Part shown: one piece after another, positions 25,835-63,538 of the stretch
Position numbering within the stretch: the stretch's first letter is position 1
Layout: every line of letters starts with the position of its first letter
Source of the DNA: Hydrolagus colliei
Lineage: Eukaryota
Direction of reading: 5' to 3'
NCBI GenBank assembly: GCA_035084275.1
Contig: CM068751.1
Location: forward strand, 19,468,001 to 19,532,000
Length of the DNA: 64,000 bases
Notes under the pieces: generated by a model
Databases searched by the model: none
What the model was told of the DNA's origin: nothing
Seen by the model: only the letters and a program-made list of their open reading frames with translations
Made by a program: the position numbers and the translations under genes

Positions 25835-25901
<67 letters not shown>

Positions 25902-31900: not shown

Positions 31901-34900
31901 GCTACAACACTCTCTCAACAACACTTAAATTGTTACACATACAATTTTAAAAAATAAAAAATTCTTATAGAATAGTCGCAATACTCTGTCGCATTCCTAA
32001 CCTTTATTTTCAAGCCTTTAATGATAAGACATCAGAGAATGTTAGGCATCAGAGAATGGAAGCTGTGGGGTCAGTACCACAGTGCACACAGCAGGGTTAC
32101 CTACTGAACCCTGCACGGATGCCCAGAATTATAGCTGCAAGGTTGTGTTTGGGAATGAGCAGATCTATTTTTGTTCTACATACAAAAATGCTGGGTGTAT
32201 TTTTGAGGGCAATCTAGGAATTAAAAAGTTTGGAAGTGTTTCTCCCTGTCGAAAGCAAATTCGATCAGATTTCTTTTAGGAAATAATATCGTGGGATAAG
32301 GATATAGTTTGGGGCATGACATATGCGTGCGACTGCCAGGATGCTGGAAGGTGAATTGGATGGATCTCGGTCTTCTTTCGGCTAGCAATTCCTAAATTCT
32401 TACGGAAATGGCCAGGATTGGGAAGGACTATTACAGTCTATGTGGGCAAGGACAGCTCTGAACAATATCTGTCGCCCAAATCCTTTGCATCAACAATATC
32501 CAGATTTCCTGCCTTCCCTTAGCAAACCCTCTAAACTAACTAAACCTAAATAGATTTTTTTCCCACTCCATAAAGTTTGGATTATCTCTTTAAGAAACTG
32601 ATGTGTGTGTGTGTTTTTAAAACCTCTGTATTGTATTTGTTCTGTTTAATCTTCTAGGGTGACACGTCCAAGGGATTTCCCGGGATCTTGGGTTTGCCTG
32701 GATTCCCAGGATCTCCGGGTATCCGAGGGGCCCCTGGGCCCCGGGGTGTGGGTTACCCTGGCAAAAAGGGTCATGAGGGACCTCCCGGAGATCTGGGTTT
32801 TCCAGGACTGCAGGGTTTCCCGGGGCCAAAAGGCCCAAACGGTAAGGCAATAGATACGTTCATGTGACTATTTTCTTTCAAATGCAAGAAAGAAGTAGCT
32901 CGGTGGTTAGGGCACTCGCCTTACAAGCGTGAGAACTGTGTTCGAATCCAGGCAGGTCAGGGCGAAACCTTGGGCAAGTTTTCTTACTCCAAACACACAC
33001 ACACACACCTAATAATAATCCGTCAAAAAAAAACACACAATAATAAAATTGGTCATTTCAATCCACGGCTGTTTGTGGGGGACGCTGCTGTGCACAATTG
33101 GCTGCCACGTTTCGCCCACAAATAGATACAGTCAATTCACTTTACAGTATATTCTGTGAAGCGCCTTGGGACGTCGATTAGATGTGAAAAGCGCTCTTAT
33201 CAAACGCAAGGATTATCACTTTTATTAGTCCTTCATCTAGAACATTATTCTGCGTTGTTAGAAATGCTTTTCATAACAGTTGCCTCAGATCTATGTTCAG
33301 GGATGTAATCTCACATCAAAATGACAGATCGGGTGGGCAGCCGGCTATAGCTGAACACTTTCTGTTCTCTTCACATCAGAGCAATTCCCTGACCTATCTA
33401 ACGTTTACAGGTGGTGAGTGCAGAGTTGACCTTATTGACTAAGCTTTGTAATGTGTCATGAGTCCCATAGGGGGAAGGAGCTCTGTGTGTAAGTCACGGC
33501 TCACGGTGTATAAATGCGACAAAGTTGATAATACATGAATGAATGTAGTACGTGTTATTTGTCGTCTGTACAAAAGAAAACTTTGAGCCGCCATGGCAGC
33601 AAACCCTGGGAAGTGCTTTGAGAGTTCCTCCAATGTGAAAGGGCTCTGCGTCAAATGCAAAGATTATAATTTATTTTCTCTTGACAGGGAGTCCTTCAAT
33701 CCCTTCTGGTTCGATTCCTGGTGCGGCAGGTCCAAAAGGAATGCCAGGACCTCCAGGTAAGCTTTACTTTTTAATGCGTTTGACATCGGTTGGAGGTCTT
33801 AACAAACTCTTAACTGCTAATACTAACTGCTATCCTTCCCGTCCAAACTTAAATATCAGCAAATCAGGTTAATCAGAATTTGTGTGAGAATATTTGTTAT
33901 TTTCAGGGATCGTAAGTATGTTACTTGTTTTGACAAATTCTGTTCTGAATGCCAATTGGCTGTGTTTTTGGGGCAATGCAAGGTAGTCAAGGTCATCGAT
34001 GATTCCGTGCCAGTGAGCGACCAGCCTTATCGAGGATATCTATTGAGTAGTTTTCCAAGATCTTCACCGTTTCCACATATTATTTTATTACACTCCAAAT
34101 AAGTATTATTAAATCACTGATGATATATATTCAAATATTCACCGCACTTTGAGAGAGTTATTGGAGTGTTCTGGCCAAATAACCATCGAGTTAGCCCCGG
34201 CAGGTTTTTGTTTGCAGTTCATTGCTAACATACAGCAAAGGCTGAAAGAGTAGCATGGGTGACTGACCGGACACCACTGAGAGAGCAATGATCTGTATGA
34301 TTGTCCTAATGCATTCATTGTATTCCCTTTCTCAGGGAGACAAGGTTCTCCAGGGCCTCTGGGTAAACAAGGAGACTCGGGCTTCAATGGGCTTAGGGGT
34401 CAAAAAGGGGACCCAGCCCTGAATGGATATCCAGGACCCCCAGGTAATACCAGAGAGAGCAACTGCCAATGGCAGCTCCATTCACATAGGACTCGCGCAG
34501 TTCTGCTACTCAGTGGTTAGAGCATTCGCCTTTATAAGCGAGAGACCTGGGTTCAATTTCAGGCAGGGCAGGATGAAACCTTGCGAAAGTTTCCTTACTT
34601 CACACACACACACACACACACACACACGCGCGCGCGCCTAATATTAATCCCTCAAACAAAATAATAAATTGGTCATTTCAAACCACAACAGTTTGTGGGG
34701 ACGCTGCTGATTGGCTGCCGCGTTTTGCCCATGTATATACAGTCGATTCACTTTACAGTATGTTCTGTGAAGCGCTTTGAGACGTCTAGAAGACATGTAA
34801 AGCGCAATATCAAATGCAAGGATTATTATTTTGTGTGTGTGTGTGTGTGTGAGAGAATTGTACTCTTATAATAGTAAATAATAATAATAATTTCCTACGT

Positions 34901-37900
34901 TTAGGAGATGTAAGCTTTACTCTTGGGAAGGGAAGAAATTAAGCTCTTAGAAAATGTAATAGTGTTTGAGAATAGTTCAGTGAAACACTTGGGAAAAGAG
35001 TAGGTGATACTGTATTTGGTTGGATACAGAATACGAGAATGAGTAAAGTCCTCGCATTTGGGAAAGGAATGTTGGTGACTTATATAGAGCATTACCAGGG
35101 AAAGCAGTGATACTATCATTTGAGGAGGTAGTAATGACTAGGAAATGCATCAGACTAGGAAATGCAACAGTGCTTCACACTCCAATTTTCTAGGTGTACA
35201 GTGTTTGGCTAGTTTGACCAGAGTTTCTGATCTCTATTTCACCAATTACTGACTGCTCAGTTTTTTCATAGGTTTCCAAGGAAATAATGGTGACCGAGGT
35301 CCTCAAGGACCACAGGGGGCATCTGAAGATGGCATTCAAGGCCTTCCTGGTAGTCCGGGCATTCCGGGAGAAAAAGGACCTCCTGGCACTACATCTGAGA
35401 GCCTTCGAGGCCTTCCTGGCGAGATAGGCAGGCAAGGCTCAGATGGAACAAGAGGTTCTCCCGGTGACCCTGGCAGTAGAGGACAGTCAGGTACATTTGA
35501 AGAGCTATTATAGTTTCTGTTAATCACTTGCAGTCCAGCCAGTTAATGGACTCAGTCCAGTGAATGAATTAAAATTTACTTGCGTGAGTTTCACTGCTTG
35601 TAGTCAAATTGGGAATGACCTAAAATAAGTTAATTGCAAAGTGAACCAAGAAGTTATGTTTTATGAATCGAAGTCTAATTTGTTTCCGTTGCTAAGAAAC
35701 AACGATTGACCTTCTCCCTCTGTAGGACGACATGGACCTCCAGGATTCTCAGGTCTGAAAGGAATTGAGGGTGACCAAGGTCAGAGTGGATTCCCAGGAT
35801 TGGGTGGGCCACCAGGCTTTCCGGGAGATCAAGGACAGCCAGGTCCAACTGGCCTTCCAGGGCTTCCTGGTTTACGAGGCAACCCAGGTAAAAGGTGTTT
35901 AAGGCTACTGAGTAGGGGGGAGATAGCGCACGCGCAAATTGTATTTGTAGAGGTGTCTTTCACGTCGGAGGGATGTCCCAAAGCGCCGTGGACAATCATG
36001 GCTGTGCACGCGAGGTGGGGAGTTCTGATTAGGAGGAGTCGAGTGAGGATGAGGGATAGGAGGGTGCCTAAAGGTATGGTTGAAGAGGAGGGTGTCGAGA
36101 CACGCCTTGAAGGAGGCAAGGGATATTAATGCAGCAGTGGTTTCAGCACGTTACAAAACTCCCAATGTTTTGTTGGCAGGTTTTTCTCAAAAAGGATTGC
36201 GGGGAGATCCCGGTACCTCTGGCCCAGCAGGAATGAAGGGTCTACCAGGAAATAGAGGGAGCCCAGGAAACCCTGGAATAACTGGGATGCCAGGCCAGGT
36301 TGGCTCTGTAGGCGCCAGTGGATCACCAGGGCTACATGGCCCAGGCGGTAGGTATATGTAATGCAAAACTACGTATACATAAATCATCACAAGGTATCAA
36401 TAAAAATAAACGTGTTGACAATAACAATTTGCAATTATAAAGCACTCTTCGGAGAGCTTGACAGTGGGAGAGTCTTGACAACGAGCCAGGAGGGGACACG
36501 TAAGCACGATCAAAACGGGAAGGTCTTCAGGTGGGATTTGAAGGTAGGGAGGGGAGGGAGCAAGGTGGATGGATCAAGGGAGAGAATTCCAAGAGTTTTG
36601 GAGCACAGTCTGTAAAGGTACAGCCACCGATCGAGTGGAGGCGACGGAGGACAAACAGGAGGCCGGAGCTTGCCGAGCAGAGGCAAACGGGTGGTGGAGA
36701 GGCAGGTCAAATAGGAAGTGCGAGGGCATTGAAGGGATTTGCAAACGAACCAGAGGATCTGCGTAACAATCTATTCAGTAATTGGGAGCCAAGTGGAGCC
36801 TGGCAAGGACTGGTGTGATGAGGGTACGGAGTTTTGTGCAGGTGAGTATCCGAGTGGCAGAGTTTTTTTGAATGAATTGGATTTTGTGTACGGTGGAGCT
36901 GGGGAGACCAGCGAGCAGGGCGTTGGACTAGTCCAGCCAGGAAGTGATAGAGGCACCAAGGAGAGTTTGGGCGGTGTTTGTTGTGAGGGACGTCTGACCG
37001 AACGGGAAATTAGTTGTGTACTGCATCTCTCACCAAGTTTATTCCTTGCGCGGACTAGGTGGCAAAGGGAAGGAAGGCATTATGGGATTTCCAGGCACCC
37101 CTGGTTCGTTTGGGCTTCCAGGAATAGAAGGATTACGAGGACCTGTTGGAGATGATGGAGTGAGAGGCGCCAGTGGCGCGGCAGGATGCCACGGAGATCC
37201 AGGTAAGAGAAATCAGGTTTCCTAAAGCCCCAAATAAAAGCAAGAGTCGCTGGGAACACTCAACAACAACAACAACTTTGATTTATATCGCGCCCTCCAC
37301 ACCGGACGGCGTCTCAGAGCGCTCCGAAGGGATTTGAAAATGAATGAGAGGATCTGCGCATCAATCCATTCGGTAATTGGGGGGGGAGAGGAAAGCGGGG
37401 GAACGGCTTCAGGTTCAATTCCCACTGACCTGACACGTTCACCCACTTTCCTCTCTCCATAGATGCTGCCTCACCTGCTGAGTGTTGCCAGTGACTCCTG
37501 GTTTCATTTCAGATTTGCAGCATTTGTAGTATGCATTTTGCCTTATTTTGCCTTGGGCCACAAATACATAGAGTCACCTCACTTTACAGTATATTCTGTG
37601 AAGCGCTTTGAGACGTCGATAAAATGTGAAAAGCCGCTATGTATATCAAATGCAAGGGTTATTATGATTATTATTATGTTTCCTAAAGCCGGAATGCTCT
37701 TAAAAATGTTCAAATACAGCACTCCAGGCATAATACAGTGAATGCAAGCTTCTTAACGACACCCAAAAGATGAACTCGGAATGTGGAGAATTATATGAGA
37801 TTAAGCTTTGTCCTATCATACAGGGCGCTGCATCTGTTTTTGCTGATGACATGTCTGCCTGCTTATAGATCTGCTAGATAATCCTGCGTCTGAGTACTTC

Positions 37901-40900
37901 CAAATCCACACAGATATGTGTATGTTATTCAGCGTGTTGTTGCTGTATGGGGGAAATGGATCAGGTACTCACTGTCTCAGTCGTGAACAGTACAGTTAAC
38001 ACTGAGAGAGGCTCAGGATTGTATTGCCGTGTGGCCATCATAATAAACTCCTGTGTAGAGATCAACTGGATCATCCCGTGTCTTGTTCGGAGTTCGGTGT
38101 TTATTCTAATTCTTTTAAACTAAAGGTGTGGAGCTCCTGTAGCTCAGCGGTTAGAGCGCTCGCCTTACAAGCGTGAGACCTGTGTTCGAATCCAGGCAGG
38201 TCAGGGCGAAACCTTGGGCAAGTTTCCTTACTCCACACACACACACACACACCTAATAATAATTCCTCCCCTCCACCAAAACAATAATAAAATTGGTCAT
38301 TTCAATCCACGACTGTTGTGGGGAACGCTGCTGTGCGCAATTGGCTGCCGCGTTTCACCCACAAATATACACAGTCAGTTCACTTGCTTTGAGACATCTA
38401 GAAGATGTGAAAAGCGCTATATCAAATGTAAGGATTATTATTATTATGTTTTAAAGCTCACTCAGAAAGCTCTCACTCCTGGATTATCCGGGGAAGTTTA
38501 TTCATACTGTAGGATACTTTTTCTAAACCCCTGGAAATTATTCACTCTGAAGCAATCCGAACTGATATACCTTTCTGAGTTATCCAAAAAGATTGATAAT
38601 AATAATAATACTAATAACACTTTGTTTCAGGTTTAAAGGGAGACCCTGGCGATGAAGGATATGTCAACGTCTTATACGAAAAAGGTTCTCATGGAAACCC
38701 AGGTGCTCTTGGTATTAAAGGGTTTACGGGACCGAGAGGTAAGGAAGACATTTTGTTATTCAACGCAGTGTTTTTTTTTAAATTTGCCCAAGACGTTAAA
38801 AGAACAGCTTATTAGCTGACCAGATTTCACTGAATCTTAAGTGTGTCATATTGGATAAGGGTTTGTATGCAACCCACCAGACCTGTGCTAAAGGAATGGG
38901 GTGAGAACGAAATCCCAGCCCAGTGAACATATCCACTGACCCGGGGCAGGTCATGAATGAATCGGCAACGTGACCAGCGGCTGAGCCAAGGAATTGAAAG
39001 TCAAATTGTTATTCAACAGAGTTGGAGAGCGTTGAGTTGACGCTGAGATAAGAGGCAGATACCATTGTCTCCTGACAGCCAGATGAGCTAGTGCTGGCTC
39101 CTGCCTGTTTTTTTTTACGTGGCTATATTTTACTGCTTGTGACTGTTTCAGGTCAGAAGGGGTTACCTGGGAATCCAGGAACAGCGGGCTTTCCTGGCAA
39201 ACCCGGTCTCCCAAGCTTACAGAAAGGAATTCAAGGCATAAATGGTCCTGGGGGTTCACCCGGACGACAAGGGTTTCTTGGGCAAAAAGGTCCACGAGGC
39301 ATCGTTGGATTTCCTGGAATGTTTGGCGAGAAAGTAAGTATCTGAACTCGACGGGGATTCTTTCATCGGACTTTTGTTTTGATCACAAACACTCTTGTGT
39401 TCACAAAACCGTTGAGTTTGTTTACAGTCTAAATCGACCTGTGTTTACAGTCTAAGTTGACTCACCCACCCCACTCTGCCCCCTCTGGAACTCCATCCCG
39501 CAGAGCTTCTGCCTCGCCCCCTCCCTGGCCTCCTTCAAATCTCGCCTCGAGTCTCTCCTCTTTGATGGAGCCATTAGCAACTCCTAATTTCCCGCACCGT
39601 CCTCAGCTCAGGTCTGAAGCAGTGACTGTCAAGCGCCTTGGGACGTCTTGCTGATGTGAAAGGCGCTATACAAGTGTAATTTTGTTGTTGTTGTTGTTGT
39701 GTTTAGGGTGATCTCGGGGAGTTGGGACAGCCTGGATTGCCAGGTATTCCTGGTTGTAAAGGTTCAAAAGGTAAGAGTCCAGATGATCTGTCCTTGCATC
39801 TGACCAACCATCACTCTCACCTAAACTGAGGCTTTAAGTGACCTTAATCTTGTAACAACAGCTTCTCGATCTCAAATTCGGACATCGAGTTAGTTAGGAG
39901 ACCGGCAGTTTTTTTTTCGTGTATGCGTCTGGAACAATCATGTAATTATACATAATGATTTTTTTTACACAAAATCTCTTGTTATTTTGCTGTCACTTGA
40001 AGTAGGTAAAAGGGTCCTAGTTGCCATTGTAGGATTGCAATCTCTCTGGCTTTCCTTACTCGGAGAAGCGCAGGGAGGGGCTGGATGTGTGGAATAGCTG
40101 AGCGCAAGTGCAAAATTGGTTGGTTTGATCACCGAACCTAAAAACCTGAAATTGATTTTAAAAAGAATTAAGCAGACCATACGAGCCATTGTTATACGGT
40201 ACAAAGATTTGCAAACTGATCTGATGAAATCTGGCCCTTTCAAAGCATCCAAGTGAAATGACACTGTGATATCAATACAGTACCTGTGAATAAGATTACA
40301 TTGCCCACAAATAATATTAAATTATCAGCCTCACGTAATGCCACCACAGAGTACAGTAAATGCGAAAAGTAATGCTCTCTGGTTAAGTGGATTGTAGAAT
40401 TACATTACATTATAAAGCATTTTGAGTTCACACATGCAGCAAACATAACGTGTAACTTATTATCTATTTTTTTTTTGCAATACGCAGGCCTGTGTAGCTC
40501 AGTGGTTAGAGCACGTGCCTTACAAGTGTGAGACCTGTGTTTGAATCCAGGCAGATCAGGGCGAAACCAAGGACACGTTTCCTTACTCCACACACATGCC
40601 TAATAATAATCCCTCCCCCCCCAAAAAAAACCCACAATAATAAAATTAATCATTTGAATCCACGACTGTTTGTGAGGAATTGGCTGCCGCGTTATTATTT
40701 TTAATAATGTTATTATTATTAAATAAAACTACAAATAAGGTCCTCGTTTTCAGGTGACCCAAGAGTATGCACCAGTTTCCCAGGAACTCCTGGTCCAAAT
40801 GGCCCACCGGGTGATGATGGAGAGTCAGGTAAAGGATTATTATACAATTCGGAGTTCCAGTGTTCCTGTCACACATTGGGACATTATTTCATACAACCCC

Positions 40901-43900
40901 ACACCTGAACTTCAGGCTCAGTCCAGACTGACGGCCCAATGCAGTGCTCAGATGAGATGCTAAACCGAGTTCCCCAGTAGACATTAAAGATCCATGGGCA
41001 CTAATCATTACTCCAAATAAAATCGGTCATTCAATTCATTGCTGTTAGTGGCACATCGCCGTGTGCAAATCGGATTCTTCTACCGATACACTGTCGTTAG
41101 ACTTTTACAGTAAACTCTCCGCTGTATTAAATTCACGGCTTACCGTTATTTTGATTACGGGGTTTCACAGCCCAAATTGCGAGTCCCAACTTTCTCCCGA
41201 GTTATTACGGCCGTTACCACAACACGGCTCACACTGGCTGAACGTTAATCACAGTCGATTTAGCGTGAAATATGACACGTAACACATTCATTGTTCCCGG
41301 ATATAGTTTGCTGGCTTTATGCCCCCGGCCCCAGCTCCCACCTAACGTCAACCTCAATGGCAAAGTCAGTGAAACTGGGCCCACAACTGGACTTCCCCAT
41401 CTGGGCTTTCAGTTGTTAGTTAATGAGATGCTGTTGCTCGAGTGACTTCGCTGATCCTCCTCACACTGCGAGCCGAGGTAGAATAAACTAAAGTCAAATT
41501 ACTTTTTTTTTTTTGGTGGAATAGGTTGCCAGGGGCCGTCGGGAGACGCTGGCCGTTCTGGCGCTGACGGGAGCCCAGGGGTACCTGGAGCCAAGGGAAT
41601 GATGGGTTCCCTCAGAGTGCCAGGCTATCCAGGTTCGTGTCATCACTTTGTAGGTTATGGAGAAGCACTTTGTTGATCTTCTACCGGCTAGATGTGGAAA
41701 GGCAGAGGCAAAGGGAGACTGGCGGGTGGGTGTGGGGGAGGAGACAGTACGACAAGGGAGGTTTGTCAGCGGTGGATGTAGAGTAAATAATCGTTGTCCT
41801 CACCTTCAGGCAATCAAGGACTTCCAGGAGATCCAGGAACACCAGGAGCCCCAGGATTGCCTGGGCCTCTGGGAAGAAAAGGCGCTGAAGGACGTCCAGG
41901 CTCAGCAGGTGCCAACGGTAAATAATAATAATAATAATAATCCTAGCATTTGATATAGCGCTTTTCACATCTTATTTACGTCTCAAAGTGTTTTTTTTTT
42001 TGGACGGATTATTATTAGGTGCGCGTTTGTGCGTGGAGTAAGGAACCTTGCCCAAGATTTTGACCTGATCTGCCTGGATTCGAACACAGGTTCTCGCGCT
42101 TGTAAAGCGAGTGCTCTAATCACTGAGCTACAGGAGCTCCGTGGGGAGTCTCTATGGGGATACGGCTAATGACTTGATACCTCAGCGTTTCAATGATTTA
42201 AGAAACTACTGGTGGCAAATCACGCTTTTATTAAATCAGCAATAAAGAAAAGCTTTGAGACGCAGTGTTTCAAGAAATTTGCGACCCAATTGAATAACAC
42301 ACTCACCGTTTCATTGTAGGTCAACCCGGGCCACCTGGTTTAAATGGTTTGGATGGTTTAACAGGAGAAAAAGGAATGCGCGGAGAACAAGGTAAAGGTT
42401 ATACTGTATAGTTACTGTTGCCGATAATAAAACAGTAATTAAACCTACCAAACGTTCTCTTTAGACCTGTATCAGTCACGAGCACTGGATACCAAGATCA
42501 CTGGCACCAAATTATTGTCTACGATTTAAATTATGAAACCATAGACAAATTATTGTCTATGGTTTCATAATTGTATAGTCTTCTATTGGAACCGTACAAC
42601 TACAATAGGAATTACTCTTGCATTTGAAAACAGCGCCTTTCACATCAGGAGGGTTTTAACCCTTCTGATTCAGACATGGGAATGGTACCTAATGAGCCAG
42701 GCTGACAACAACAAAATTCCACTTGTATAGCGCCTCTCACGTCAGGAGGACTTCCCAAGTCATGGACAGTTACTGTGTCAGACCCGGGATGGGGTGATGG
42801 GTGGGGGAGGAGGGATTAGGAGGGATTAGGAGGTTCCGATTGGACCATCGAAGAGGAGGGTTTTGAGGTGGGACTTGAAGGAAGCCAGGGAGTGGGTGAG
42901 GCGGAGGGAATGTGGGATGGAGTTCCAGAGGTCGGGGGCAGAATCATACGACACAAAGTGCATAACTGTGCCCTGTGGTTTCTTTTACGATCAACTTGAC
43001 ACGATGTTAGTTACATACCCTCTGCTCTATCGCTCACTTTATTAAGTCAGCTTTCACTGTTGTGATTGTGTAAAGGTCCCAGCAAAACTGGACCTCCAGG
43101 TAATCCAGGATCGCCTGGATCTCAAGGAGAACGTGGGCCTCCAGGAACTCCAGGGAGGACTATTCCTGGGTACACGGGGAGAACAGGCCAACGAGGACCA
43201 TCAGGTAGGGAAGTGTATTAGCAAATAACATCAGTTCCGACTGCTTTGATTTCAGTACTGCGGAGAACAGTACAATTTTGACACAATAATAATCTGTAGT
43301 GGATAAATTAAGCGTTTTTTTTTTAACCAATGAATGTGCAACAAATATTGGTAATTCTCGATGGGATTGTTTGCTGCTGATCTCATCTCATTACAAACAC
43401 AAGTTGGAAGAACGTCACCATGGTTATATACCATTAATACCGTCGCTCTTCCCATAAAGTGATGAATTTTCTACTTGTGCCAGTTGCATTCAGTGACAGT
43501 CACACTTCAATACTGCGCCGATCTTGGTGTTATTCTATCGAGAAGCTGTCCAATTTGTGAATATTATACAATGTTGGTGTATCACAGGCTACTGGAGACT
43601 GTCAAACTGATTACTGGATACGTAGACACATACTATTTCTAAGCTCTCTATGGGACATGTGATGACATCTCATGGGTCTTTGAAAATTGCATATGTGGTT
43701 CAGTGTTGCAGTGCTTTGGATATAATAATAATAATCCTTGCATTTGATGCATACCACTTTTCACGTCTTTTAGACGGCTCAGGATAGAACTCAATAGTCC
43801 TGGAGTCCTGTAGCTCAGTGGTTAGAGCGCTCGCCTTACAAGCGTGAGACCTGTGTTCGAATCCAGCCAGGTCAGGGCGAAACCTTGGGCAAGTTTCCTT

Positions 43901-46336
43901 ACTCCACACGCCTAGTAATAATCCGTAAAAAAAAAACATAATAATAAAAATTGGTCATTTTAATCAACAACTGTTTGTGGGGGGACGCCGCTGTGCGCAA
44001 TTGGCTGCCGCGTTTCGCCCACAAATATATACAGTCAATTCACTTTACAGTGTATTCTGTGAAGCGCTTTGAGGCACAGTCTAGAAGACATGAAAAGCGC
44101 CATATCAAATGCAAGGATTATTACTATTATATGAAGAGATCTAAGATTAATGTTGCCATTGTTCCAAGTTGCTTTGCCAGCTTTGTGTGCTTCTTACTTT
44201 TCTTCGTTTCGCGCTTGAAAGAGAATGTGTTGAAATGCTTTAATTGTTCACCTTTTCTGGTTTGCACTGTTCCACCTGTCTCTGCTCCATCACGCGAATC
44301 TTCACGATCCCCTTGCTGTTTCTTTGTGGGCTTTTTAAACCAGGCAATCCAGGTGAGCATTTACCATGATATCATTCCGTTCAAGATATTAACTGATGAT
44401 CAGTTTCTGTCTCAAATGAGTGCTTTTATCTTTGTGTTTTATCATGTGAATGTGTCATTCCCCCTTGACTTTATGAGTTACTCCAGGCAGTAAAATGGAG
44501 TGGTGGCGGGAGGTGGAAATCAATATGAAGTGGCTATAATTGTGACTCATAACTTACGGAACTGGGTGCATATTGTATGAGTATGTGATTCTACAAGACT
44601 CCACAAGAACAATATTCCTTGTATTTGGTGTAGTGCCTTTTCACATTGAAAGGTGTCTGTCTCGTAGCCCTCACAGGAGGTCTCACAATTCTAATGAAAA
44701 TTCCAACCAATCTTCCCAGTGTTTACAGTAAAAGGGGCAATGTTTTTACTGTGCCCTCGGTCCCCAATTCTGGACAAAAGAAAATGTCAAACTACATTAC
44801 AGCGTTTTGAGACATATCAACGACATGATAAGGCACCCTATCAAATGCAAGGATTAGTATTATTATTATTAAAATAACCTTGGATAAGTTTACCTCGGGA
44901 GACTACGCTTGTTGTCAACATCATTGGTAGCAGAGATATTCCATCCATCAACTATGTTATCCACATAGGGGGTGATGACAGGAGTCATACACGACCAACA
45001 AGAAGACGGTATTGTATGCTTTAAATAACAACAACACATCTCCCTCTAAAATAAATTCAACATTTGAGGTCGCTATTATGGATAAATACTTTAAAGCAAA
45101 TGATATGAGAATTAATCACAGTATTCTAGAAAATAATAGACCCAAATAATATGATGGCAATTACTACTGAAATATTTTGGGGATAAAAATGGATTTTTAA
45201 AATAGTATACACAGAAGTGCACCTTGATAACACAGACCGATGTTTAAATATGACCAATAATAATTGTCCTTGATCTACAGGAATGCCGGGGACACCAGGA
45301 ACGCCGGGACCGGAAGGCCCTCCGTGTGATATAGTATCTATTGGATCTCGAGGAGATAATGGACCTGCAGGACTTGATGGCCAACCAGGTATAGACATTG
45401 CTAGAGTAATGTGGAGTCCTGTAGCTCAGTGGTTAGAGCACTCACCTTACAAGCGAGAGACCTGGGTTCAATTCCAGGCAGGTCAGGTCGAAACTTTAGG
45501 CAAATTCCCTTACGCCACACGCCTAATTGGTCATTTCAATCCAAAGACTGTTTGTAGGACAATTACTGTGCGCAATTGGATGCCGCGTTTCGCCAACGCA
45601 GTCAATTCACTTTGCAGTATATTCTGTAAAGCACTTTGAGACATCTAGGAGTGAAAATTATAATATAATAATATAATAATCCTTGCATTTGATATAGCGC
45701 TTTTCACATCTTATCGACTGTGTCTCAAAGCGCTTCACAGAATATACTGTAAAGTGAATTGACTGTATATCTGTGGGCGAAACCCAGAAAAGCATTTTAT
45801 CAAATGCAAGGATTATTATTATTATAATTATTACTGCCAACTTAATAACCATCCAAATAATTGACAGTTGCGTGCATTTCACCCCATGAATTATGACTTC
45901 GGTCTCAGAATCTGCCCCATTGACCAATTTACCATTCATCGATTTAGCAGTCGACCGCAAATTTTATATTGATTGATTTTGTTGTGTTGTAGGTCCTCCC
46001 GGTTTACCAGGAGATCCGGGTTCCTCCTTACAGCCGATGAAAGGAGATCCTGGTGATCCAGGCCTGCAGGGTTTCTTTGGTCCCAAAGGGCTCGCAGGAC
46101 ATCCAGGCACTGATGGCTTCGATGGTTTTCCAGGGTTACGTGGTCAAAAAGGTAAATGTTCCGAGTACAATGTCAGTCCCGCTCCACGTTTCTTTTCGTC
46201 CTTTCTTTGTGGTCGGCCAAGTACTGTGTAGAGTCCTGGAGCTCAGTGGTTAGAGCACTCGCAAGCACTGACAAGCGCGAGACCTGTGTTCAAATCCAGG
46301 CAGGTCAGGGCGAAACCTCGGGCAAGTTTCCTTACT

Positions 46337-46376
<40 letters not shown>

Positions 46377-49300
46377 CTAATAATAATAATTTCTAAAAAA
46401 AAAAAAAAACCCTGTATATGTGTGGGCGAAATGCAGCGGCCAGTTGCGCACGGCAGCGTCCCCACAAACAGTCGTGGATTGAAATGATGAATTTTATTAT
46501 TATGGGTTTTTTTGGGGGGGACAGATTATTATTAGGCGCATGTGTGTGTGTGCGTGTGTGTGTGTGTGTGGAGTAAGGAAACTTGCCCTGCCCTGCCTGG
46601 ATTCGAAACACAGAGTCTCACGCTTGTAAGTGCTGGCGAGTGCTCTAACCCCTGAGCTACAGGTGACTCCTTTTGTTGAATGTCCAAAATGGTATCAGTG
46701 TTTTATGATTCAGACGACAGTTACCCTCTCTTATGTTCTTGTTTGGCACGAAGGTGAGATAGGATACAATGGGTCATTCGGGTTCCCTGGCCTGGACGGA
46801 TTTCGCGGAGATCCCGGTGATGCGGGTGAACGTGGTGACTGTGGATCACCGGGAACTCCAGGTCGGTTATTTTTGCTCCCGTCTACTGGCTCATCGAACC
46901 GCGGACTAGTGGCAACTCCACACAAGAATAACGCGAGTGTTCGAAAAGGCTTTTCCGATGTTACACACAGCAGCTAAAACACCGTGTGTTGCTGAGGCTG
47001 CCTGAAAATATTTCCGGCAAAAAAACAGTGATGTAAATACACAGAAGGCTATTCTAATATGGTCTTGCCTACATTCTCACCCTTGAATTTTTACTCGAGG
47101 AATGTCTGTCTGGCAATCTGTACCATATGTATGCATGTATGTATATATATACACCAACCTTTATTTAATCTACCTATACAGGATAATACTGTACTGTGAA
47201 ACAATTCCGAGCCACATCTCAGGAAGAGATGAAGGTGAAGACTTTGCTACAACAACAACAGCAACAACTACTTGCATTGGTTTAGCGCCCTCACTCCACG
47301 CCAGACAGCGCCTCAGAGCGCTTCACAATAGCGGAGGCCGAGCCAGAGGGAGGGAGGGGGAAGGTGACCCTAGGCGTGGTCGAACAGAAAGGTCTTCAGG
47401 AGTGACCTGAAGATGGAAAAGGAGGGGGTAGAGGCCAAGGCAATGAGGGAGGGAGTTCCAGAGTCTCGGGGCGTAGTGGCTGAAAGCACGGCCGCCGATG
47501 GTGGAGCGGAGGATTCGGGGGGAATGAGGAGGAGGTCAGACCCAGTAGAACGGAGGCAGCGGATACTGCTGTGTGGAGAGAGGAGAGGTTAGAAAAGTGG
47601 GGGTGGGTGTGCAGAGGAGAGGAAGGACTTAAATACAAGTGGAGGGATTTGCTCTAACGGTTTATGTAGCCATCTCAATAGCTTGTATTATGTTAAATTA
47701 GTTTAATTGTGTTTATTTTCAAGTTTTGCGTGAGATTTTCACTTCAAGGCTGTACAGTATTGAGACATTTCTCCCCGGCTACTGTTTGTTTTTACTGTTA
47801 TAACCTGTATCTTCGCAGTATTCCTTGTGGCTTTCAAATAATAATGTTTTTTAAATGGTCTCCTAAATGTGCTGTTTGTTTACGAACTGGTATATTTATC
47901 ATTTTAATGCGCCGTTTTAATTTGTTTCCGAACGCACAGTGCAGCTTAATCAGTATGCATCCATTTGACTGAGATGCAGAGTAGACCAATATCTATCTTG
48001 GCACGTGACATATATTGATAATCAGTCACGCTCCCCTTTTAATTCCCAAACCCTTGATATTCCCTATTTGCATGTGGTTAAGACCTTATCTGTGTGATTG
48101 ATGTATCGCCCCCTGACAGATGCAACTCTCCGTGATTGATGTATCGGCTTGCGTCTGATTTATCACTCCGTTATTACGTTAATTTGCTTTAATCGTTTAC
48201 TTGTTTTCACTTCCATGTCTGCGACTCTCTGAATTACAATTTCCCAATCGGGCGGTACGTACTTGCCCCTCCGGAAACCCAGGGACCCCAGGTGAGAGAC
48301 CCAGCGAGCTGTGAGAGGCAGGGGTTGACTGGCGTTTGTTGTTTGGCGTCAGCTCTGCGGTTTCATTTCCCTTCGTAACTCTTCGTGTCTCTTCGTAACG
48401 TGTTATCGTAGTAATAATAACGAGTAAGGTTTGCAAACTGCGGTTCTCGCTTTGATTCAAAACCGCGTCATTCAAAAGTAACTTGATGATGTAAATGGTA
48501 GGACTGGAGGTTTGGTATTCTGCAAAGATGAGGTCAAATGAGCCAAAGTGTTTTGTTAAAAAAACAAAAATCTGAACGTCTTTTGTGATCTTTGTGATTG
48601 TTTGTCGTTGAGTTACAGGTCCACCTGGTTCAATTATTTCTGGTCTCTGTCTGGATATGGAGGACTATAAAGGAGATAACGGGCCTTCGGGATTTCCAGG
48701 TCTCCCGGGATCAAGCGGAGCTATGGGATTACCTGGACTACGCGGCTCTACAGGTAACGGCTGTAAGGGCCCGAATGGTGGGTGAGCGGTGGCCGAGCAA
48801 CGAGTTGCTAGTTTATCCTAATTGGATGCCACGTGATAGGAAATCATACGGCAATGCAATGCCGGGCGGGCAATACGCACAGAACACAAATCCTCAAGAG
48901 GCGGAAATAAACAATCTGGGTGATTACGTTTCCTCTCCTCAGAAATGTACAGAGAGGCGGGGGGTGGTGGGGGGTGGGGGTGGGTGGGGGGGAGGGGGGG
49001 GGGAAGGGGGCTGGTATTCGGTTGCGGTTAATGCCCCACAATGTTGGGAAGCGGATCAAGAAAGAAAAGTGTTTTTCCGTTCCCGAATGTTGTTCATTTC
49101 GATGATAAAATTTACTAAAATCTAATCGCTATAAACCACTGAAAATAACTGGGATGACTGAGCACTATTTTAATCACAGGTATCCTTGCCTTAGCTACTC
49201 TGTGTACCTGAGGGACATATTCAGGTGTGGTGATGGGAGACATGCGTAATTGTTAACTATGTTTCATCATGTCTCGGATGGACATCCAGAGTAATTGTGC

Positions 49301-52300
49301 GCAAATGTTTCTGTAGGACCCAAAGGCACCATTGGGAAACCCGGCAAACCAGGATCTGGTTCTCTCGGCTTTCCTGGGGTATCAGGAGATCCAGGCCGGC
49401 CTGGGAGTCGAGGAATGGTTGGGGATCTGGGTAAGAGAAGATCCTGTTGGTAACAGGAACCTTTTGTCAACGTGAGAGAAACACATTCTTAATGAAAACA
49501 TCATCTGTTCCTTTACGCTTGGAGTTTGAATGTGTTCATCTTGATTTTGCCGTTTTCTGGAATGACTTCTGGGTATCTTAACGGTTTAGAATAAACCCTA
49601 ACGGTCCAGTGCATTCATCCTCACAACGTGAAATGTACTATATAAATATAAATTTTGTTGTTGCCTTCAAATTACTATTGAGCGAGACAGGCTGATGACC
49701 TGGACATCGGCTATTTCTTTGGCGCCAGGAAAGCCCGACGGAGGTTATGAAGCGAGTCAGTCCAGAGGGGCAAATTGAATTTCTTGCCCAGTAAATGTCA
49801 AGGTTCATATCCCAAATGAATCCGCTTTATAACAGGGTTTGACTGTATTAAGTGGATTTGTGAAGCTTTGTCCATTTTGGACGATTTTGGTATTTCAGCC
49901 GTCAACGTCTTATTTGCTAAAGCTGTAATGAACAGTAAATGCAATCGATTTATTCTACACTTCAGGTCCCTGTGGGCTTCAAGGGCGTCCAGGAGAGATA
50001 AGACCTTGTGGGTCTGCTGGTGGCTTCCTACTTGTAAAACATAGTCAAACAAACAAAGTACCCTCGTGTCCTCAAAACATGCCTAGTCTTTGGCATGGGT
50101 ACAGTTTGCTTCATCTGGAGGGACAAGAAAATTCTCACAGTCAAGATCTTGGTAAGTGTAGTCAGGATATTTACCTTGCATAATTATAAAACCCGCCCAT
50201 TGAACTTTTACAATATGTTATGTTCTACTGGAACATCGGTCAGTGATTCTGCTCAATGTTCTACTAGAAGATCGGTCAGTGATTCTGCTCAATTCTACTC
50301 GATAGAGTTGGGCAAGAATGGGGCAGAGAGGGTCACAAAGCTTGGTGGTGGGGGGAGAACATTGGAGAGTTTTGGATGATCTGCAGCCGACGGAGGGGGG
50401 AGTTGGGGGAGGCCGACAATCACGGTGTGGGTTCAGTCGAGCCTGGACGTGATGAAGGCAAGAATGAGAGTTTCAGCAGCCTGAGAGGATGTGAGGCAGT
50501 GGCGGAGTCAGGCAATGTTGCGGAGGTGAGGGAACGGCAAAGCTAGATGAAAATCAAAGGCCCATAGTGGGAGGATGAATCCAATCAAAGACCAGATGCT
50601 TCAGTGAATACGTGACATGGATCAGGGATTTAAAAATAATGCAGATTTTGAAAGGACAGGTTGAGAGAGGTAAGGAGTTCAATAGTTTTGAGGTCTTGGA
50701 GGTGAAAATGAGTTAGAATACAAACTACAGAACATAAGAATATCATTCACATTATATCTACATGCTTCTGACATGCCGACCTTCCATTACATGGTTAGGA
50801 AACCTTCACCCAAATCTCGGGAGTGTGTTTGCTATACAAGTGTAATTTTGTTGTTGTCACTAAATTCGGCAGCTGAAAAAAGGAAAGCTTATCTGTCCGT
50901 GTATGCTCAGTGACCCTCTCCACATAAGTGAGCGTCTAGGACAATTCGTCACGCCGCTTCCCACAGTCTTGTCACATACTTATTGATAACCGTTCCTGCG
51001 TTCTCGCTATTCTCCCCAGGTCTGGCTGGCTCCTGTCTGCCGATGTTCAGCACAATGCCATTTGCGTATTGCACCGTTGACGACGTGTGTCAGTATGCCA
51101 ATAGAAATGACAAAACCTATTGGTTGTCCACCACTGCACCCATGCCCGAGAGGCCGCTCATTGATCAAGAGATAGAGCCTTACATCAGCAGATGCTCGGT
51201 GTGCGAATCGTCTTCTGTCTCAGTGGCTGTCCATAGCCAAGATGAGACCGTTCCCTTTTGCCCATCGGGATGGAGAAGTCTTTGGGCTGGATACTCTTTC
51301 TTCATGGTGAGCAGAAATTCATTGAGAACCTAAGGAATTCGCTTGGCGACAGTAGACCGAGGTCCATCTAGTTTAGCTTTCGCCATCCTGGCGGTCGCTT
51401 GGTTGGCATTTTGTGAGTTTATTATTTGCTAGTTTATTCGCTGGCTTTACTATGTGTAATCATCATCGTCACTAATTCATGTTGAGGTTACAGATCCATG
51501 GTGGGTGTGGGGGGAGGTGGGTGGGGAGGGGGTGTACTGGAATCCATCAATGAGCACTGCGGTAAATCTCTTTCCCACAGTGTACATTTCTGTGTCTCTG
51601 GTGTTCACTGAACACGGCGAAAACGTTTTTCCCCACGAGGGAGTCAAATTGGAGGCTGGGTTGCTTTGGTTCCCATATTGCACCTCCACAGCGGGCGAGT
51701 TCATCAGTGACTGTGACTTGTTCTCGCTCCCTCTCCCCTTACCTCCTTCAACACCTTCCTTTTCAATTAGATCTTTGGTCACCTCACCCTGCCCTCCATC
51801 CCTCCTATTCCCAACCCCCAGCTCGGGCCCAAATTTCTGACCGTGCAGCGCCATGGGCCGTCCTGCCGACATGAACGGCGCTATTACAACTGTGATTTTG
51901 CAGTGGGTGTTGCTGTAGTGTCCCTGAAAACATGTGTCCCGCCTGCTGACTTTGTTCCTGTTTGAGGAAACCTTCCAAAAATTGGGAGCTGATGGGAACA
52001 AAGAAGAGGGCAGCAAAGAGTAAAAGTTGGAGGTGTTAAGTGTTTCAATTCCCAGTCCGGACGATTGAATAACAATAATAATCCTTGCAATTGATATCGC
52101 GGCTTTTCACATCATATCAACCTCTCAAAACGCGTCACAGAATGTACTGTAAAGTGAATTCACTGACTGTAAATATGTGGCCGAAACGCGGCAGCCAATT
52201 GCGCTCAGCAGCGTCGTCGTCGTCCCCCCACGCACAGCCGTGGGTTGAAAATTACCAATTTTTATTATTGTGGGTTTTTTGGTGGGGACGGATGGATTAT

Positions 52301-52604
52301 TATCAGTGTGTCACCTTCCTGTTTGCAGCACACAGTAACAGGCAGGGGCGGAGGAGGCCAATCCTTGATGTCACCGGGGAGCTGTCTAGAGGATTTCCGC
52401 TTGGCACCATTTATCGAGTGCCAGGGAGCCCGGGGAACTTGCCACTTCTTCGCCAACAAATATAGCTTCTGGCTAACGACAGTGCGATCGAACGAGCAGT
52501 TTGGTACACATGCCTCTTCAGAGACTCTTAAAGTGGGACACAGAGAGAGAGTCAGTCGGTGTCGAGTTTGCGTAAGGAATGAATGTGAGAACAAGGGGTG
52601 TTAA
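4035..52604 (+). CDS. col4a4: Collagen type IV alpha-4 chain, complete multi-exon gene (48 coding exons incl. two 9-nt microexons, about 5070 nt CDS, about 1689 aa)
   Basis: Signal peptide, 7S motif [13 protein letters not shown], Gly-X-Y exons with GT-AG introns in a continuous frame, NC1 with alpha-4-type motifs [36 protein letters not shown]; synteny with col4a3 and rhbdd1. Confidence 0.95.
4155..4440 (-). mobile_element. SINE copy, 5' truncated
   Basis: Reverse complement of family core and tail. Confidence 0.88.
4764..4809 (+). CDS. col4a4: col4a4 exon 3 ([15 protein letters not shown], signal peptide)
   Basis: CAG acceptor, GTAAGT donor, 46 nt, hydrophobic. Confidence 0.85.
5308..5583 (-). 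mobile_element. L2 3' tail fused to SINE 5' half
   Basis: (CAA)n tail and L2 end at 5308-5417, SINE head at 5418-5583. Confidence 0.75.
5895..6057 (+). mobile_element. SINE 3' half
   Basis: Core and tail match. Confidence 0.85.
7050..7420 (-). mobile_element. LINE2 3' fragment
   Basis: Translates [16 protein letters not shown]...IRSAG, typical L2 ORF2 C-terminus, then C-rich 3'UTR. Confidence 0.85.
8862..9190 (+). mobile_element. SINE, full length
   Basis: tRNA head, (CA)n, core, tail. Confidence 0.92.
9722..10245 (+). mobile_element. SINE full length (9722-10060) followed by L2 3' end (10063-10245)
   Basis: Family match; CTCAAGACCCTCCTCTTC and CTTGGGACGTCC...GAAAGGCACTATAT. Confidence 0.88.
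11590..11772 (+). mobile_element. CR1-type LINE 3' end (shark HER1-like)
   Basis: AGCCATGATC...GAATGGCGG...GGCTCGAGGGGCTGAATGGCCTACTCCTGCTCC and (TATGTTC)n tail. Confidence 0.85.
11923..12000 (+). CDS. col4a4: col4a4 exon 4 ([26 protein letters not shown])
   Basis: 78 nt, 7S cysteine motif, AG/GT. Confidence 0.95.
12511..12832 (-). mobile_element. SINE, full length
   Basis: Family match. Confidence 0.92.
13442..13786 (+). mobile_element. SINE, near full length
   Basis: Family match. Confidence 0.9.
15482..15838 (+). mobile_element. SINE, full length
   Basis: Family match. Confidence 0.92.
16448..16582 (+). CDS. col4a4: col4a4 exon 5
   Basis: 135 nt Gly-X-Y, AG/GT. Confidence 0.93.
17154..17198 (+). 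CDS. col4a4: col4a4 exon 6
   Basis: 45 nt [23 protein letters not shown]. Confidence 0.93.
17322..17438 (+). CDS. col4a4: col4a4 exon 7
   Basis: 117 nt, [21 protein letters not shown]. Confidence 0.93.
18441..18509 (+). CDS. col4a4: col4a4 exon 8
   Basis: 69 nt with interruption [18 protein letters not shown]. Confidence 0.92.
19298..19333 (+). CDS. col4a4: col4a4 exon 9
   Basis: 36 nt [20 protein letters not shown]. Confidence 0.9.
19381..20049 (+). mobile_element. SINE split by a MITE insertion
   Basis: Consensus CACTTTACAGTA-TA-TTCTGTGAAG is interrupted at the TA. Confidence 0.9.
19655..19968. mobile_element. Non-autonomous Tc1/mariner (pogo/Tigger-type) MITE, 314 bp
   Basis: 20-bp TIRs CAGTAAAAGCCCGTTTATCC / GGATAAACTGGCTTTTACTG (19/20 match), TA target duplication at 19653-54 and 19969-70. 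Confidence 0.9.
20368..20430 (+). CDS. col4a4: col4a4 exon 10
   Basis: 63 nt Gly-X-Y, AG/GTGAGT. Confidence 0.92.
21555..21590 (+). CDS. col4a4: col4a4 exon 11
   Basis: 36 nt Gly-X-Y, AG/GTGAGT. Confidence 0.92.
21830..21871 (+). CDS. col4a4: col4a4 exon 12
   Basis: 42 nt [22 protein letters not shown]. Confidence 0.9.
23415..23495 (+). CDS. col4a4: col4a4 exon 13
   Basis: 81 nt, LIEPP interruption, AG/GT. Confidence 0.92.
24118..24459 (+). mobile_element. SINE, full length
   Basis: Family match. Confidence 0.92.
24677..24730 (+). CDS. col4a4: col4a4 exon 14
   Basis: 54 nt Gly-X-Y, AG/GTGAGT. Confidence 0.92.
24905..25223 (+). mobile_element. SINE, full length
   Basis: Family match. Confidence 0.92.
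25557..25622 (+). CDS. col4a4: col4a4 exon 15
   Basis: 66 nt [30 protein letters not shown]. Confidence 0.9.
25739..26102 (+). mobile_element. SINE with expanded (CA)n
   Basis: Family match; (CA)n about 25836-25897. Confidence 0.9.
26523..26567 (+). CDS. col4a4: col4a4 exon 16
   Basis: 45 nt Gly-X-Y, AG/GTACGC. Confidence 0.88.
26955..27308 (+). mobile_element. SINE, near full length
   Basis: Family match. Confidence 0.9.
27418..27471 (+). CDS. col4a4: col4a4 exon 17
   Basis: 54 nt Gly-X-Y, AG/GTAAAC. Confidence 0.9.
28146..28215 (+). CDS. col4a4: col4a4 exon 18
   Basis: 70 nt, ends phase 1, AG/GTAGGA. Confidence 0.9.
28390..28673 (+). mobile_element. SINE, near full length
   Basis: Family match. 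Confidence 0.88.
29283..29390 (+). CDS. col4a4: col4a4 exon 19
   Basis: 108 nt, phase 1-1, Gly-X-Y. Confidence 0.9.
29611..29763 (+). CDS. col4a4: col4a4 exon 20
   Basis: 153 nt, phase 1-1, donor GTATGT. Confidence 0.88.
30026..30362 (+). mobile_element. SINE, full length
   Basis: Family match. Confidence 0.92.
30471..30563 (+). CDS. col4a4: col4a4 exon 21
   Basis: 93 nt, [21 protein letters not shown]. Confidence 0.9.
30769..30923 (+). CDS. col4a4: col4a4 exon 22
   Basis: 155 nt, C-A-C motif typical of alpha-4, AG/GTGAGT. Confidence 0.92.
31356..31428 (+). CDS. col4a4: col4a4 exon 23
   Basis: 73 nt, AG/GTAAAC. Confidence 0.9.
31433..31672 (+). mobile_element. SINE, 3' truncated, starting just after exon 23 donor
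   Basis: GTAAACTCCTGTAGCTCAGTGG. Confidence 0.88.
31739..31845 (+). CDS. col4a4: col4a4 exon 24
   Basis: 107 nt, AG/GTAGGT. Confidence 0.9.
32658..32841 (+). CDS. col4a4: col4a4 exon 25
   Basis: 184 nt Gly-X-Y, AG/GTAAGG. Confidence 0.93.
32895..33220 (+). mobile_element. SINE, full length
   Basis: Family match. Confidence 0.92.
33688..33756 (+). CDS. col4a4: col4a4 exon 26
   Basis: 69 nt, AG/GTAAGC. Confidence 0.92.
34336..34443 (+). CDS. col4a4: col4a4 exon 27
   Basis: 108 nt, AG/GTAATA. Confidence 0.92.
34500..34830 (+). mobile_element. SINE, full length
   Basis: Family match. Confidence 0.9.
35272..35490 (+). CDS. col4a4: col4a4 exon 28
   Basis: 219 nt, AG/GTACAT. Confidence 0.93.
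35726..35887 (+). CDS. col4a4: col4a4 exon 29
   Basis: 162 nt, AG/GTAAAA. Confidence 0.93.
36180..36347 (+). CDS. col4a4: col4a4 exon 30
   Basis: 168 nt, AG/GTAGGT. Confidence 0.9.
36415..36990 (-). mobile_element. LINE2 3' fragment
   Basis: Frameshifted L2 ORF2 C-terminal motifs on minus strand ([26 protein letters not shown]) plus tail. Confidence 0.85.
37059..37202 (+). CDS. col4a4: col4a4 exon 31
   Basis: 144 nt, TAG/GTAAGA. Confidence 0.9.
37445..37540. mobile_element. Penelope-like terminal repeat fragment (shark type)
   Basis: CTCTCCATAGATGCTGCCTCACCTGCTGAGT...TTTCAGATTTGCAGCAT motif recalled from chondrichthyan genomes. Confidence 0.55.
38130..38446 (+). mobile_element. SINE, full length
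   Basis: Family match. Confidence 0.92.
38631..38738 (+). CDS. col4a4: col4a4 exon 32
   Basis: 108 nt, AG/GTAAGG. Confidence 0.92.
39152..39333 (+). CDS. col4a4: col4a4 exon 33
   Basis: 182 nt, AG/GTAAGT. Confidence 0.93.
39460..39700 (+). mobile_element. LINE2 3' end with (TTG)n tail abutting exon 34 acceptor
   Basis: CTCTGGAACTCC...CCTTCAAAT...AAGCGCCTTGGGACGTC...GAAAGGCGCTATACAAGTGTAAT(TTG)n. Confidence 0.85.
39707..39770 (+). CDS. col4a4: col4a4 exon 34
   Basis: 64 nt, AG/GTAAGA. Confidence 0.92.
40488..40720 (+). mobile_element. SINE with internal deletions
   Basis: Head, partial core, tail. Confidence 0.85.
40754..40828 (+). CDS. col4a4: col4a4 exon 35
   Basis: 75 nt, AG/GTAAAG. 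Confidence 0.92.
41525..41632 (+). CDS. col4a4: col4a4 exon 36
   Basis: 108 nt, starts GCQG, AG/GTTCGT. Confidence 0.9.
41810..41917 (+). CDS. col4a4: col4a4 exon 37
   Basis: 108 nt, AG/GTAAAT. Confidence 0.9.
41920..42140 (-). mobile_element. SINE with internal deletion, tail abutting exon 37 donor
   Basis: (TAA)n starts within the first intron bases; head near 42140. Confidence 0.88.
42320..42391 (+). CDS. col4a4: col4a4 exon 38
   Basis: 72 nt, [16 protein letters not shown]. Confidence 0.92.
42529..42572. repeat. Perfect inverted repeat, 20-bp arms, 4-nt loop
   Basis: AATTATGAAACCATAGACAA-ATTA-TTGTCTATGGTTTCATAATT. Confidence 0.95.
43076..43204 (+). CDS. col4a4: col4a4 exon 39
   Basis: 129 nt, AG/GTAGGG. 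Confidence 0.92.
43802..44130 (+). mobile_element. SINE, full length
   Basis: Family match. Confidence 0.92.
44344..44352 (+). CDS. col4a4: col4a4 candidate extra 9-nt microexon (G-N-P) between exons 39 and 40
   Basis: aaccag|GCAATCCAG|gtgagc, phase 1-1, one Gly-X-Y triplet, AG-free pyrimidine-rich zone 44224-44341 upstream. Confidence 0.65.
45281..45388 (+). CDS. col4a4: col4a4 exon 40
   Basis: 108 nt, CDIVSI interruption, AG/GTATAG. Confidence 0.92.
45413..45830. mobile_element. Plus SINE interrupted before its tail by an inverted SINE 3' half
   Basis: + 45413-45650, - 45657-45783, + tail 45790-45830. Confidence 0.8.
45993..46151 (+). CDS. col4a4: col4a4 exon 41
   Basis: 159 nt, AG/GTAAAT. 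Confidence 0.92.
46217..46662. mobile_element. Inverted pair of partial SINEs filling intron 41
   Basis: + head 46217-46392, - copy 46412-46662. Confidence 0.85.
46754..46861 (+). CDS. col4a4: col4a4 exon 42
   Basis: 108 nt, AAG/GTCGGT. Confidence 0.9.
47245..47660 (-). mobile_element. LINE2 3' fragment
   Basis: (CAA)n tail, GAGGGAGTTCCAGAG, GGCTGAAAGCACGGCCGCCGATGG. Confidence 0.85.
48283..48291 (+). CDS. col4a4: col4a4 exon 43, 9-nt microexon (G-T-P)
   Basis: cccag|GGACCCCAG|gtgaga, AG-free zone 48120-48280; position matches the 9-nt exon 43 of human COL4A4 as recalled. Confidence 0.75.
48619..48753 (+). CDS. col4a4: col4a4 exon 44 (3' end ambiguous: 48753 or 48777)
   Basis: [12 protein letters not shown] motif; phase-1 donors GTAACG at 48754 or GTGGGT at 48778. 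Confidence 0.8.
49317..49430 (+). CDS. col4a4: col4a4 exon 45
   Basis: 114 nt, AG/GTAAGA. Confidence 0.92.
49966..50151 (+). CDS. col4a4: col4a4 exon 46 (helix/NC1 junction, GFLLVKHSQ...QDLG)
   Basis: 186 nt, NC1 start, AG/GTAAGT. Confidence 0.95.
50221..50298 (+). repeat. Tandem duplication, about 36-bp unit x2
   Basis: TGTTCTACT.GAA.ATCGGTCAGTGATTCTGCTCAA repeated. Confidence 0.85.
51020..51306 (+). CDS. col4a4: col4a4 exon 47 (NC1)
   Basis: 287 nt, LAGSCL...GYSFFM, AG/GTGAGC. Confidence 0.96.
51640..51915 (+). mobile_element. Degraded LINE2 3' end
   Basis: C-rich UTR, CAGCGCCATGGG...GGCGCTATTACAA tail. Confidence 0.6.
52068..52306 (-). mobile_element. SINE, 5' truncated, ending 22 nt before last-exon start
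   Basis: Family match. Confidence 0.88.
52329..52604 (+). CDS. col4a4: col4a4 exon 48 (NC1 C-terminal half, stop TAA)
   Basis: HT...[10 protein letters not shown]...[16 protein letters not shown]. Confidence 0.96.
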
Positions 52605-63437: not shown

Positions 63438-63538
63438 TCATCTGGCAAATCGGTTCAGTCGTCGCTGCCTCATTTCGTCTTCGCTCAATTGCCTTGCCGT
63501 CCGAGTGTTGCTTTGGCTCCTGCCATTGCGGGATCTCC
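63438..63538 (-). CDS. rhbdd1: Rhomboid domain-containing protein 1 (RHBDL4), last coding exon with VCP/p97-binding motif; rest of gene lies right of the window
   Basis: ttgcag| acceptor, phase 1, LSEDEMRQRRLNRFAR* resembles human SPEEMRRQRLHRFDSQ; convergent with COL4A4 as in human. Confidence 0.82.

Follow-up and report, generated by a model that had tools for sequence, protein, structure and literature searches.

The alpha-4 chain of type IV collagen in a chimaera lacks Met93 of the sulfilimine cross-link and retains Lys211. The gene lies in the window, by which we mean the whole stretch of 64,000 nucleotides that was analyzed. We give a probability of roughly 0.7 to the following reading. 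Paired alpha-4 heads would be held together without a sulfilimine bond, likely by chloride contacts and possibly by Glu93 with Lys211; the chimaera loss would be one of several independent ones, and alpha-4 can probably do without the bond.

Met93 and Lys211 are the bond pair in alpha-1 numbering (Casino et al., PMC6211539). At the Met93/Met94 pair of the even-numbered chains, the window reads GAG AGG (Glu-Arg; 51148-51153, plus strand). The motif is therefore APMPERP, compared with PMMP in alpha-2/4/6 chains and APLPMMP in the solved human alpha-2 and alpha-4 structures, and it is carried by the frame 1 translation of 51001-51300 within the exon at 51020-51306. Positions were numbered by alignment to human alpha-1 (1li1_A; query residues 2-95 on chain residues 50-145), which includes a two-residue insert that is visible in the 6mpx alignment. 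In this alignment the Glu falls on Met93, the Arg on 94, and the remaining Met of APMP (ATG, 51142..51144, plus strand) on 89. The lysine of ETLKVG (AAA, 52530..52532, plus strand), placed from the last exon translation and the alignment count, falls on 211. These placements bear out the first-pass annotation, which had claimed that Met93 is absent, that Lys211 is kept, and that the APMP Met is position 89. The first Met of PMMP is kept in 91 of 91 alpha-2 or alpha-6 sequences, and the second in 90 of 91; this conservation, together with the alignment to alpha-1 Met93, favors the first as the bonded residue. The window lacks both, whichever one is bonded.

Logan contigs of four of the 11 listed runs (X1, X5, X6, and X7), none of which is recorded as RNA, were compared with the window. 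X1 and X5 are two samples of organism A from two studies, X6 is organism B, and the window itself may derive from X1. Over 50832-52103, the X1 contig (depth 11) has three other letters, two of them listed and both intronic, and the X5 contig (depth 44) has two, one of them listed and intronic. The unlisted letter in X5 cannot restore the first Met, because two changes are needed. The X6 contig, over 50854-51188, has nine differences, all listed and none within 51148-51153; one of them changes Pro88 to Thr. The Lys211 letters are identical in an X1 contig whose two differences are both listed and lie elsewhere. X7 was left out, with a depth of 3.6 over the codons and one of four differences listed. 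Joints within the contigs stem from repeats in DNA contigs and carry no splicing information. A single sequencing error had previously been judged unlikely, and the case is now stronger: three base changes would be required to turn GAG AGG into ATG ATG, the same codons occur in X5 and in organism B, and both Mets are also absent in Callorhinchus. Sequencing or assembly error at the two codons is thus excluded for practical purposes. The exon encoding the Met93 loop is under purifying selection, as shown by the nine listed differences between organism B and the window exon, of which seven are synonymous and two nonsynonymous (binomial P of 0.0005 under neutrality, or 0.0014 if one unlisted difference is nonsynonymous).

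The layout of the window gene is the expected one, with a two-lobed NC1 domain after an interrupted Gly-X-Y domain. Three plus-strand exons encode the NC1 region. The first (49966..50151, AG..GT bounded) holds the final Gly-X-Y triplets, two Cys of the linker, and the NC1 start; the middle one (51020..51306, 287 bp, AG/GT bounded) encodes the Met93 loop and the chloride motif R76/D78; and the last coding exon (52329..52604) carries E175, R179, N187, Lys211 in a shorter loop, and the stop codon. They splice in frame and keep all 12 canonical Cys. Upstream, a rough model places 36 stop-free Gly-X-Y exons at 16448..49430 on the plus strand. The whole chain comprises 39 exons and 1511 residues, with 13 Cys before NC1; it picks stop-free exons by design, and the 5' exons and some small exons are missing from it. 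The labels "exon 47" and "exon 48" used in the first-pass annotation follow human numbering.

Phylogenetic placement identifies the gene as COL4A4, as had been proposed. The best match of the Met93-loop exon is Callorhinchus milii (88% identity over the exon). From a set of 259 proteins, including the spliced window NC1, we kept 236 near-complete NC1 domains and dropped 23 partial ones. In a FastTree phylogeny of the 236, the window falls in the human alpha-4 clade with a support of 0.971. An IQ-TREE analysis of 37 hand-picked rows, with three trait columns removed, gave supports of 99/97 for alpha-4, 100/98 for chondrichthyan alpha-4, and 100/100 for the window with Callorhinchus. The window NC1 stands apart from alpha-2 and alpha-6 in the trees.

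Met93 loss in the sampled alpha-4 proteins is recurrent, and the chimaera is not unusual for this chain. Met93 is absent from 19 of 74 alpha-4 sequences (15 lack both Mets), which are top-scoring matches of alpha-4-biased queries and in which 11 of the 19 losses belong to one teleost paralog clade. It is absent from none of the 38 alpha-2, 53 alpha-6, and 34 vertebrate alpha-1/5-type chains and from 2 of the 37 remaining sequences; alpha-3 was barely sampled. Lys211 is absent from 15/74 alpha-4 sequences versus 0/125 alpha-2, alpha-6, and alpha-1/5-type sequences combined. Both residues are kept in 52 of the 74 and both are lost in 12; seven have lost the Met and kept the Lys, and three (Latimeria, Erpetoichthys, and Polymixia) show the reverse. 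Parsimony gives seven Met and five Lys changes on the 37-row IQ-TREE tree and six Met and seven Lys changes on the 74-row FastTree clade. Since 55 of the 74 keep Met93, the bond is not neutral everywhere. The loss had been presented as particular to this lineage, with the reservation that its novelty would be lowered if loss were common in fish alpha-4. That reservation applies: there is a published zebrafish precedent, and the 19 Met93 losses among 74 alpha-4 sequences amount to about seven changes.

Met93 losses are found in holocephalans, a stingray, teleosts, songbirds, and mammal-like sequences. Among the elasmobranchs, five of six (sharks, skates, and Narcine) keep both residues; the Hypanus chain lacks both, with Lys-Ser at the Met pair and Thr at 211. 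Teleosts carry a pair of alpha-4 paralogs. One of the two retains Met and Lys in acanthomorphs; the other evolves fast and is without the first Met and, almost always, without the Lys. The window state (no Met at 93/94, Lys211 retained) is found again in two songbird entries, in a teleost protein (P0210), and in a mammal-like Logan protein (P0175). The latter reads Thr-Arg, is represented by 20 contigs, and clusters at 90% with dingo alpha-4; assignment to dog was rejected, as the dingo member of the cluster keeps Met-Met. In the mammal-like sequences P0175, P0174, P0268, P0269, P0281, and P0430, Met-Met is replaced by Thr-Arg, Leu-Met, Thr-Ser, Val-Met, or Ser-Ala, and the first Met is missing in 6 of 21 scorable, mutually redundant cluster members. 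Alpha-4 Met93 thus appears to be absent in some mammals. Met and Lys loss coincide by a raw Fisher test that ignores kinship (p = 7e-7), but an independent-pairs sign test on the tree gave no support (median p of 1), and correlated loss was not supported after this phylogenetic correction.

Two further features of the protein set were observed. P0062, from a cluster that includes Aldrovandia affinis, is an odd-type, alpha-3-like teleost NC1 without Met93 and Lys211. Five entries inside the alpha-4 clade (P0004, P0005, P0007, P0022, and P0049) are annotated as "alpha-2(IV)-like", so name-based surveys would miss them.

The closest published parallel is zebrafish alpha-4, whose NC1 is described as lacking M93 and K211 and as having an extra Cys (LeBleu et al. 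2023, bioRxiv 10.1101/2022.08.14.503918); the same preprint infers from sequence that the zebrafish alpha-4 pair is un-crosslinked. As in the window, the sulfilimine Met is gone while other chains keep it, and NC1 has gained Cys. The two differ in that zebrafish has no Lys211 and has its additional Cys in the SM2 hairpin. In the window Lys211 is retained, positions 93/94 are Glu-Arg, and the C-terminal tail is the site of the added Cys. The holocephalan and zebrafish losses are independent. A literature search, with subscription journals and some supplements outside its scope, returned neither a report on a chimaera nor a survey of alpha-4 across vertebrates, and the zebrafish preprint was the sole alpha-4 loss that it returned.

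Callorhinchus milii alpha-4 (P0003) is sister to the window chain, with 85% identity over NC1, and shares the absence of Met93/94, the presence of Met89, the shortened Lys211 loop, and a 10-residue tail with a Cys at +5. In both holocephalans the loop is shortened by two residues relative to the remaining alpha-4 chains, human included. However, Callorhinchus has Arg-Lys for Glu-Arg, Ser for Lys211, Gln for R179, and one tail Cys rather than two. Its Lys at 94 and Met at 212 look almost like the cross-link pair with its two residues exchanged; Met212 is also found in Heptranchias. The mammalian alpha345 NC1 hexamer (PDB 6WKU and 5NB1) contains the orthologous alpha-4, which shares the chloride-ring residues and the 12 canonical Cys. 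In contrast, the human alpha-4 motif is PMMP, and sulfilimines join its chains in alpha4-alpha4 dimers.

Each sulfilimine joins Met93 of one chain to Lys211 of the opposing chain (PMC13098435, PMC6211539), and Lys211 touches the loop around Met93 in the monomer opposite (PMC6211539). The bond is presented as conserved and essential, with up to six per hexamer (Clarke 2026, PMC13098435); Hydra and ctenophores are listed as exceptions, the latter having a cysteine loop (Fidler 2017, PMC5395295). Chloride alone is reported to assemble uncrosslinked alpha345 hexamers, which the sulfilimines reinforce (Pedchenko 2021, PMC8099640). All five residues given for the chloride ring (R76, D78, E175, R179, and N187; LeBleu et al., bioRxiv 10.1101/2022.08.14.503918) are present in the window, so chloride-driven assembly should work. 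An alpha4-alpha4 pair would lose both bonds if the register is homotypic, because Met93 is absent. The first-pass annotation had proposed such an un-crosslinked alpha-4 dimer. Its chemical part stands, as a homotypic Met93-Lys211 bond is impossible without Met93. Its premise, that alpha-4 faces alpha-4 across the alpha345 hexamer, is doubtful. Alpha4-alpha4 dimers are described from native mammalian glomerular basement membrane (GBM), but in the human crystal alpha-4 was paired with alpha-5 and the register was labile (Boudko 2021, PMC8093946), and shark kidney is reported to have alpha-4 and alpha-5 in separate hexamers and no alpha345 scaffold (Pokidysheva 2023).

In the preferred reading, the ancestor of holocephalans would have lost Met93; Lys211 would then have drifted, as with the Ser in Callorhinchus, or stayed where an acidic partner faces it. 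Chloride-ring contacts would hold the alpha4-alpha4 heads, and the covalent load would pass to odd-numbered partner chains and to disulfides of the Cys-rich helix, where alpha-4 Cys have been described as lateral cross-links (PMC12141075). Partner chains could still cross-link, because an alpha-5-type chain of Callorhinchus (P0126), the single odd-numbered holocephalan chain in the set, keeps Met93 and Lys211. A Glu93-Lys211 salt bridge is a tentative element, in our view somewhat doubtful. All five alpha-4 chains with Arg or Lys at 93 lack Lys211 and the window, with Glu, keeps it, a charge pattern drawn from about two informative lineages. The most plausible view of Lys211 is that it is a leftover, because the sister taxon has lost it.

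Retention of Lys211 would have a different meaning if alpha-4 faced alpha-3, alpha-1, or alpha-5 and its lysine accepted the Met93 of that chain, so that one of two bonds survived. The alpha4-alpha5 pairs and labile register of the crystal (PMC8093946), shark scaffolds unlike the mammalian ones (Pokidysheva 2023), and the seven of 74 alpha-4 chains that lost only the Met agree with such use. We consider it unlikely, as Callorhinchus has lost Lys211, alpha4-alpha4 dimers come from native mammalian GBM (PMC8093946), and the reverse state also occurs in 3 of 74, as expected from stepwise decay. General degeneration of the gene, of which the Met loss would be one part, is very improbable. The holocephalan branch is long by the standard of chondrichthyan alpha-4 (root-to-tip distances of 0.30 to 0.33, versus 0.10 to 0.23 in five of six elasmobranchs), the Met-less Hypanus reaches 0.33, and amphibians have lost COL4A3/4 (PMC12141075). 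However, the NC1 exons join in frame and none of the 12 canonical Cys is missing, synonymous differences from organism B are in excess (7:2), and NC1 is 85% identical to that of Callorhinchus; the stop-free 1511-residue model points the same way, weakly, since stop-free exons were chosen by design.

A replacement of the bond is conceivable through Met89 as sulfur donor or through disulfides of the C-terminal tail. The 10-residue tail (52572..52601, plus strand) brings NC1 plus tail to 14 Cys, compared with 12. Its first Cys (52584-52586, plus strand) lies five residues past the last canonical Cys and is common to Callorhinchus; the second, terminal one (52599-52601, plus strand) is present in the window only. 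Such a Cys tail occurs in 2 of 69 scorable alpha-4 chains, the two holocephalans; the other 67 tails have three to six residues, one with a Cys, and five chains were not scorable. Met89 is likewise limited to these two among the 74 alpha-4 chains, and both features share their branch with the Met93 loss. Ctenophores without Met93 and Lys211 use a Cys-bearing NC1 extension (Fidler 2017, PMC5395295), and zebrafish alpha-4 has its extra Cys (bioRxiv 10.1101/2022.08.14.503918). Even so, we regard replacement as quite unlikely. Met89 accompanies Met93, the documented bond residue, in 33 of the 34 alpha-1/5-type chains, and Callorhinchus has no Lys211 for Met89 to join; Met89 has at most a small chance of being a stand-in donor. 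Where the tail could be scored, none of the remaining Met-less alpha-4 chains has a Cys tail. The C-terminus of NC1 sits at the apex, remote from the interface between trimers (PMC8093946) and close to the two linker Cys, so a disulfide within the protomer is likelier than a substitute for the interface bond.

The holocephalan tail has 10 residues with two Cys in the window and one in Callorhinchus, whereas the ctenophore loop has 11 to 13 residues, three to four conserved Cys, and biochemical support (Fidler 2017, PMC5395295). The Z-appendage of human alpha-3 (PMC8100070) is also a Cys-bearing NC1 extension, but it is a pathogenic variant and the holocephalan tail is natural. A more ambitious scheme would have alpha-4 dropping the sulfilimine lock repeatedly, songbirds and some mammals included, with a holocephalan redesign by Glu93-Lys211 salt bridge and disulfide tail that converges on ctenophores; as a whole this is a long shot. 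At 49966-50012 (plus strand), two Cys flank the last Gly-X-Y triplets before NC1 in both holocephalans, and one is present in most elasmobranch alpha-4. These linker Cys are possible partners of the tail Cys.

Natural alpha-4 chains without the bond, in fish whose GBM is loose and apparently also in birds and mammals whose GBM is compact, suggest that the alpha-4 bond pair is optional. Optional bonds would bear on the reading of human COL4A4 variants at the cross-link residues; according to a consensus paper, substitutions at the sulfilimine Lys and Met have not been described (PMC8384871). The chimaera adds one more instance beside zebrafish, and the breadth of loss across alpha-4 is the more useful result.

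The surroundings of the gene were also examined. The minus-strand exon at 63438..63538 fits what we take to be the C-terminal motif of RHBDD1 and is probably the last coding exon of this tail-to-tail neighbor. A PDB search with this exon gave no match. COL4A4-RHBDD1 synteny, on which the assignment also draws, has been published (Page-McCaw 2025, PMC12141075). For a head-to-head COL4A3, no minus-strand collagen exons were found in 1-16400, upstream of the rough COL4A4 model, from which the 5' exons are missing. A very high-copy interspersed repeat with AAT-rich ends, probably a SINE family, occurs at about 52050-52310, 52640-53060, 53750-54050, 57860-58040, 60420-60750, and 63800-64000, and the summed depth of X1 contigs exceeds two million at 52110-52199.
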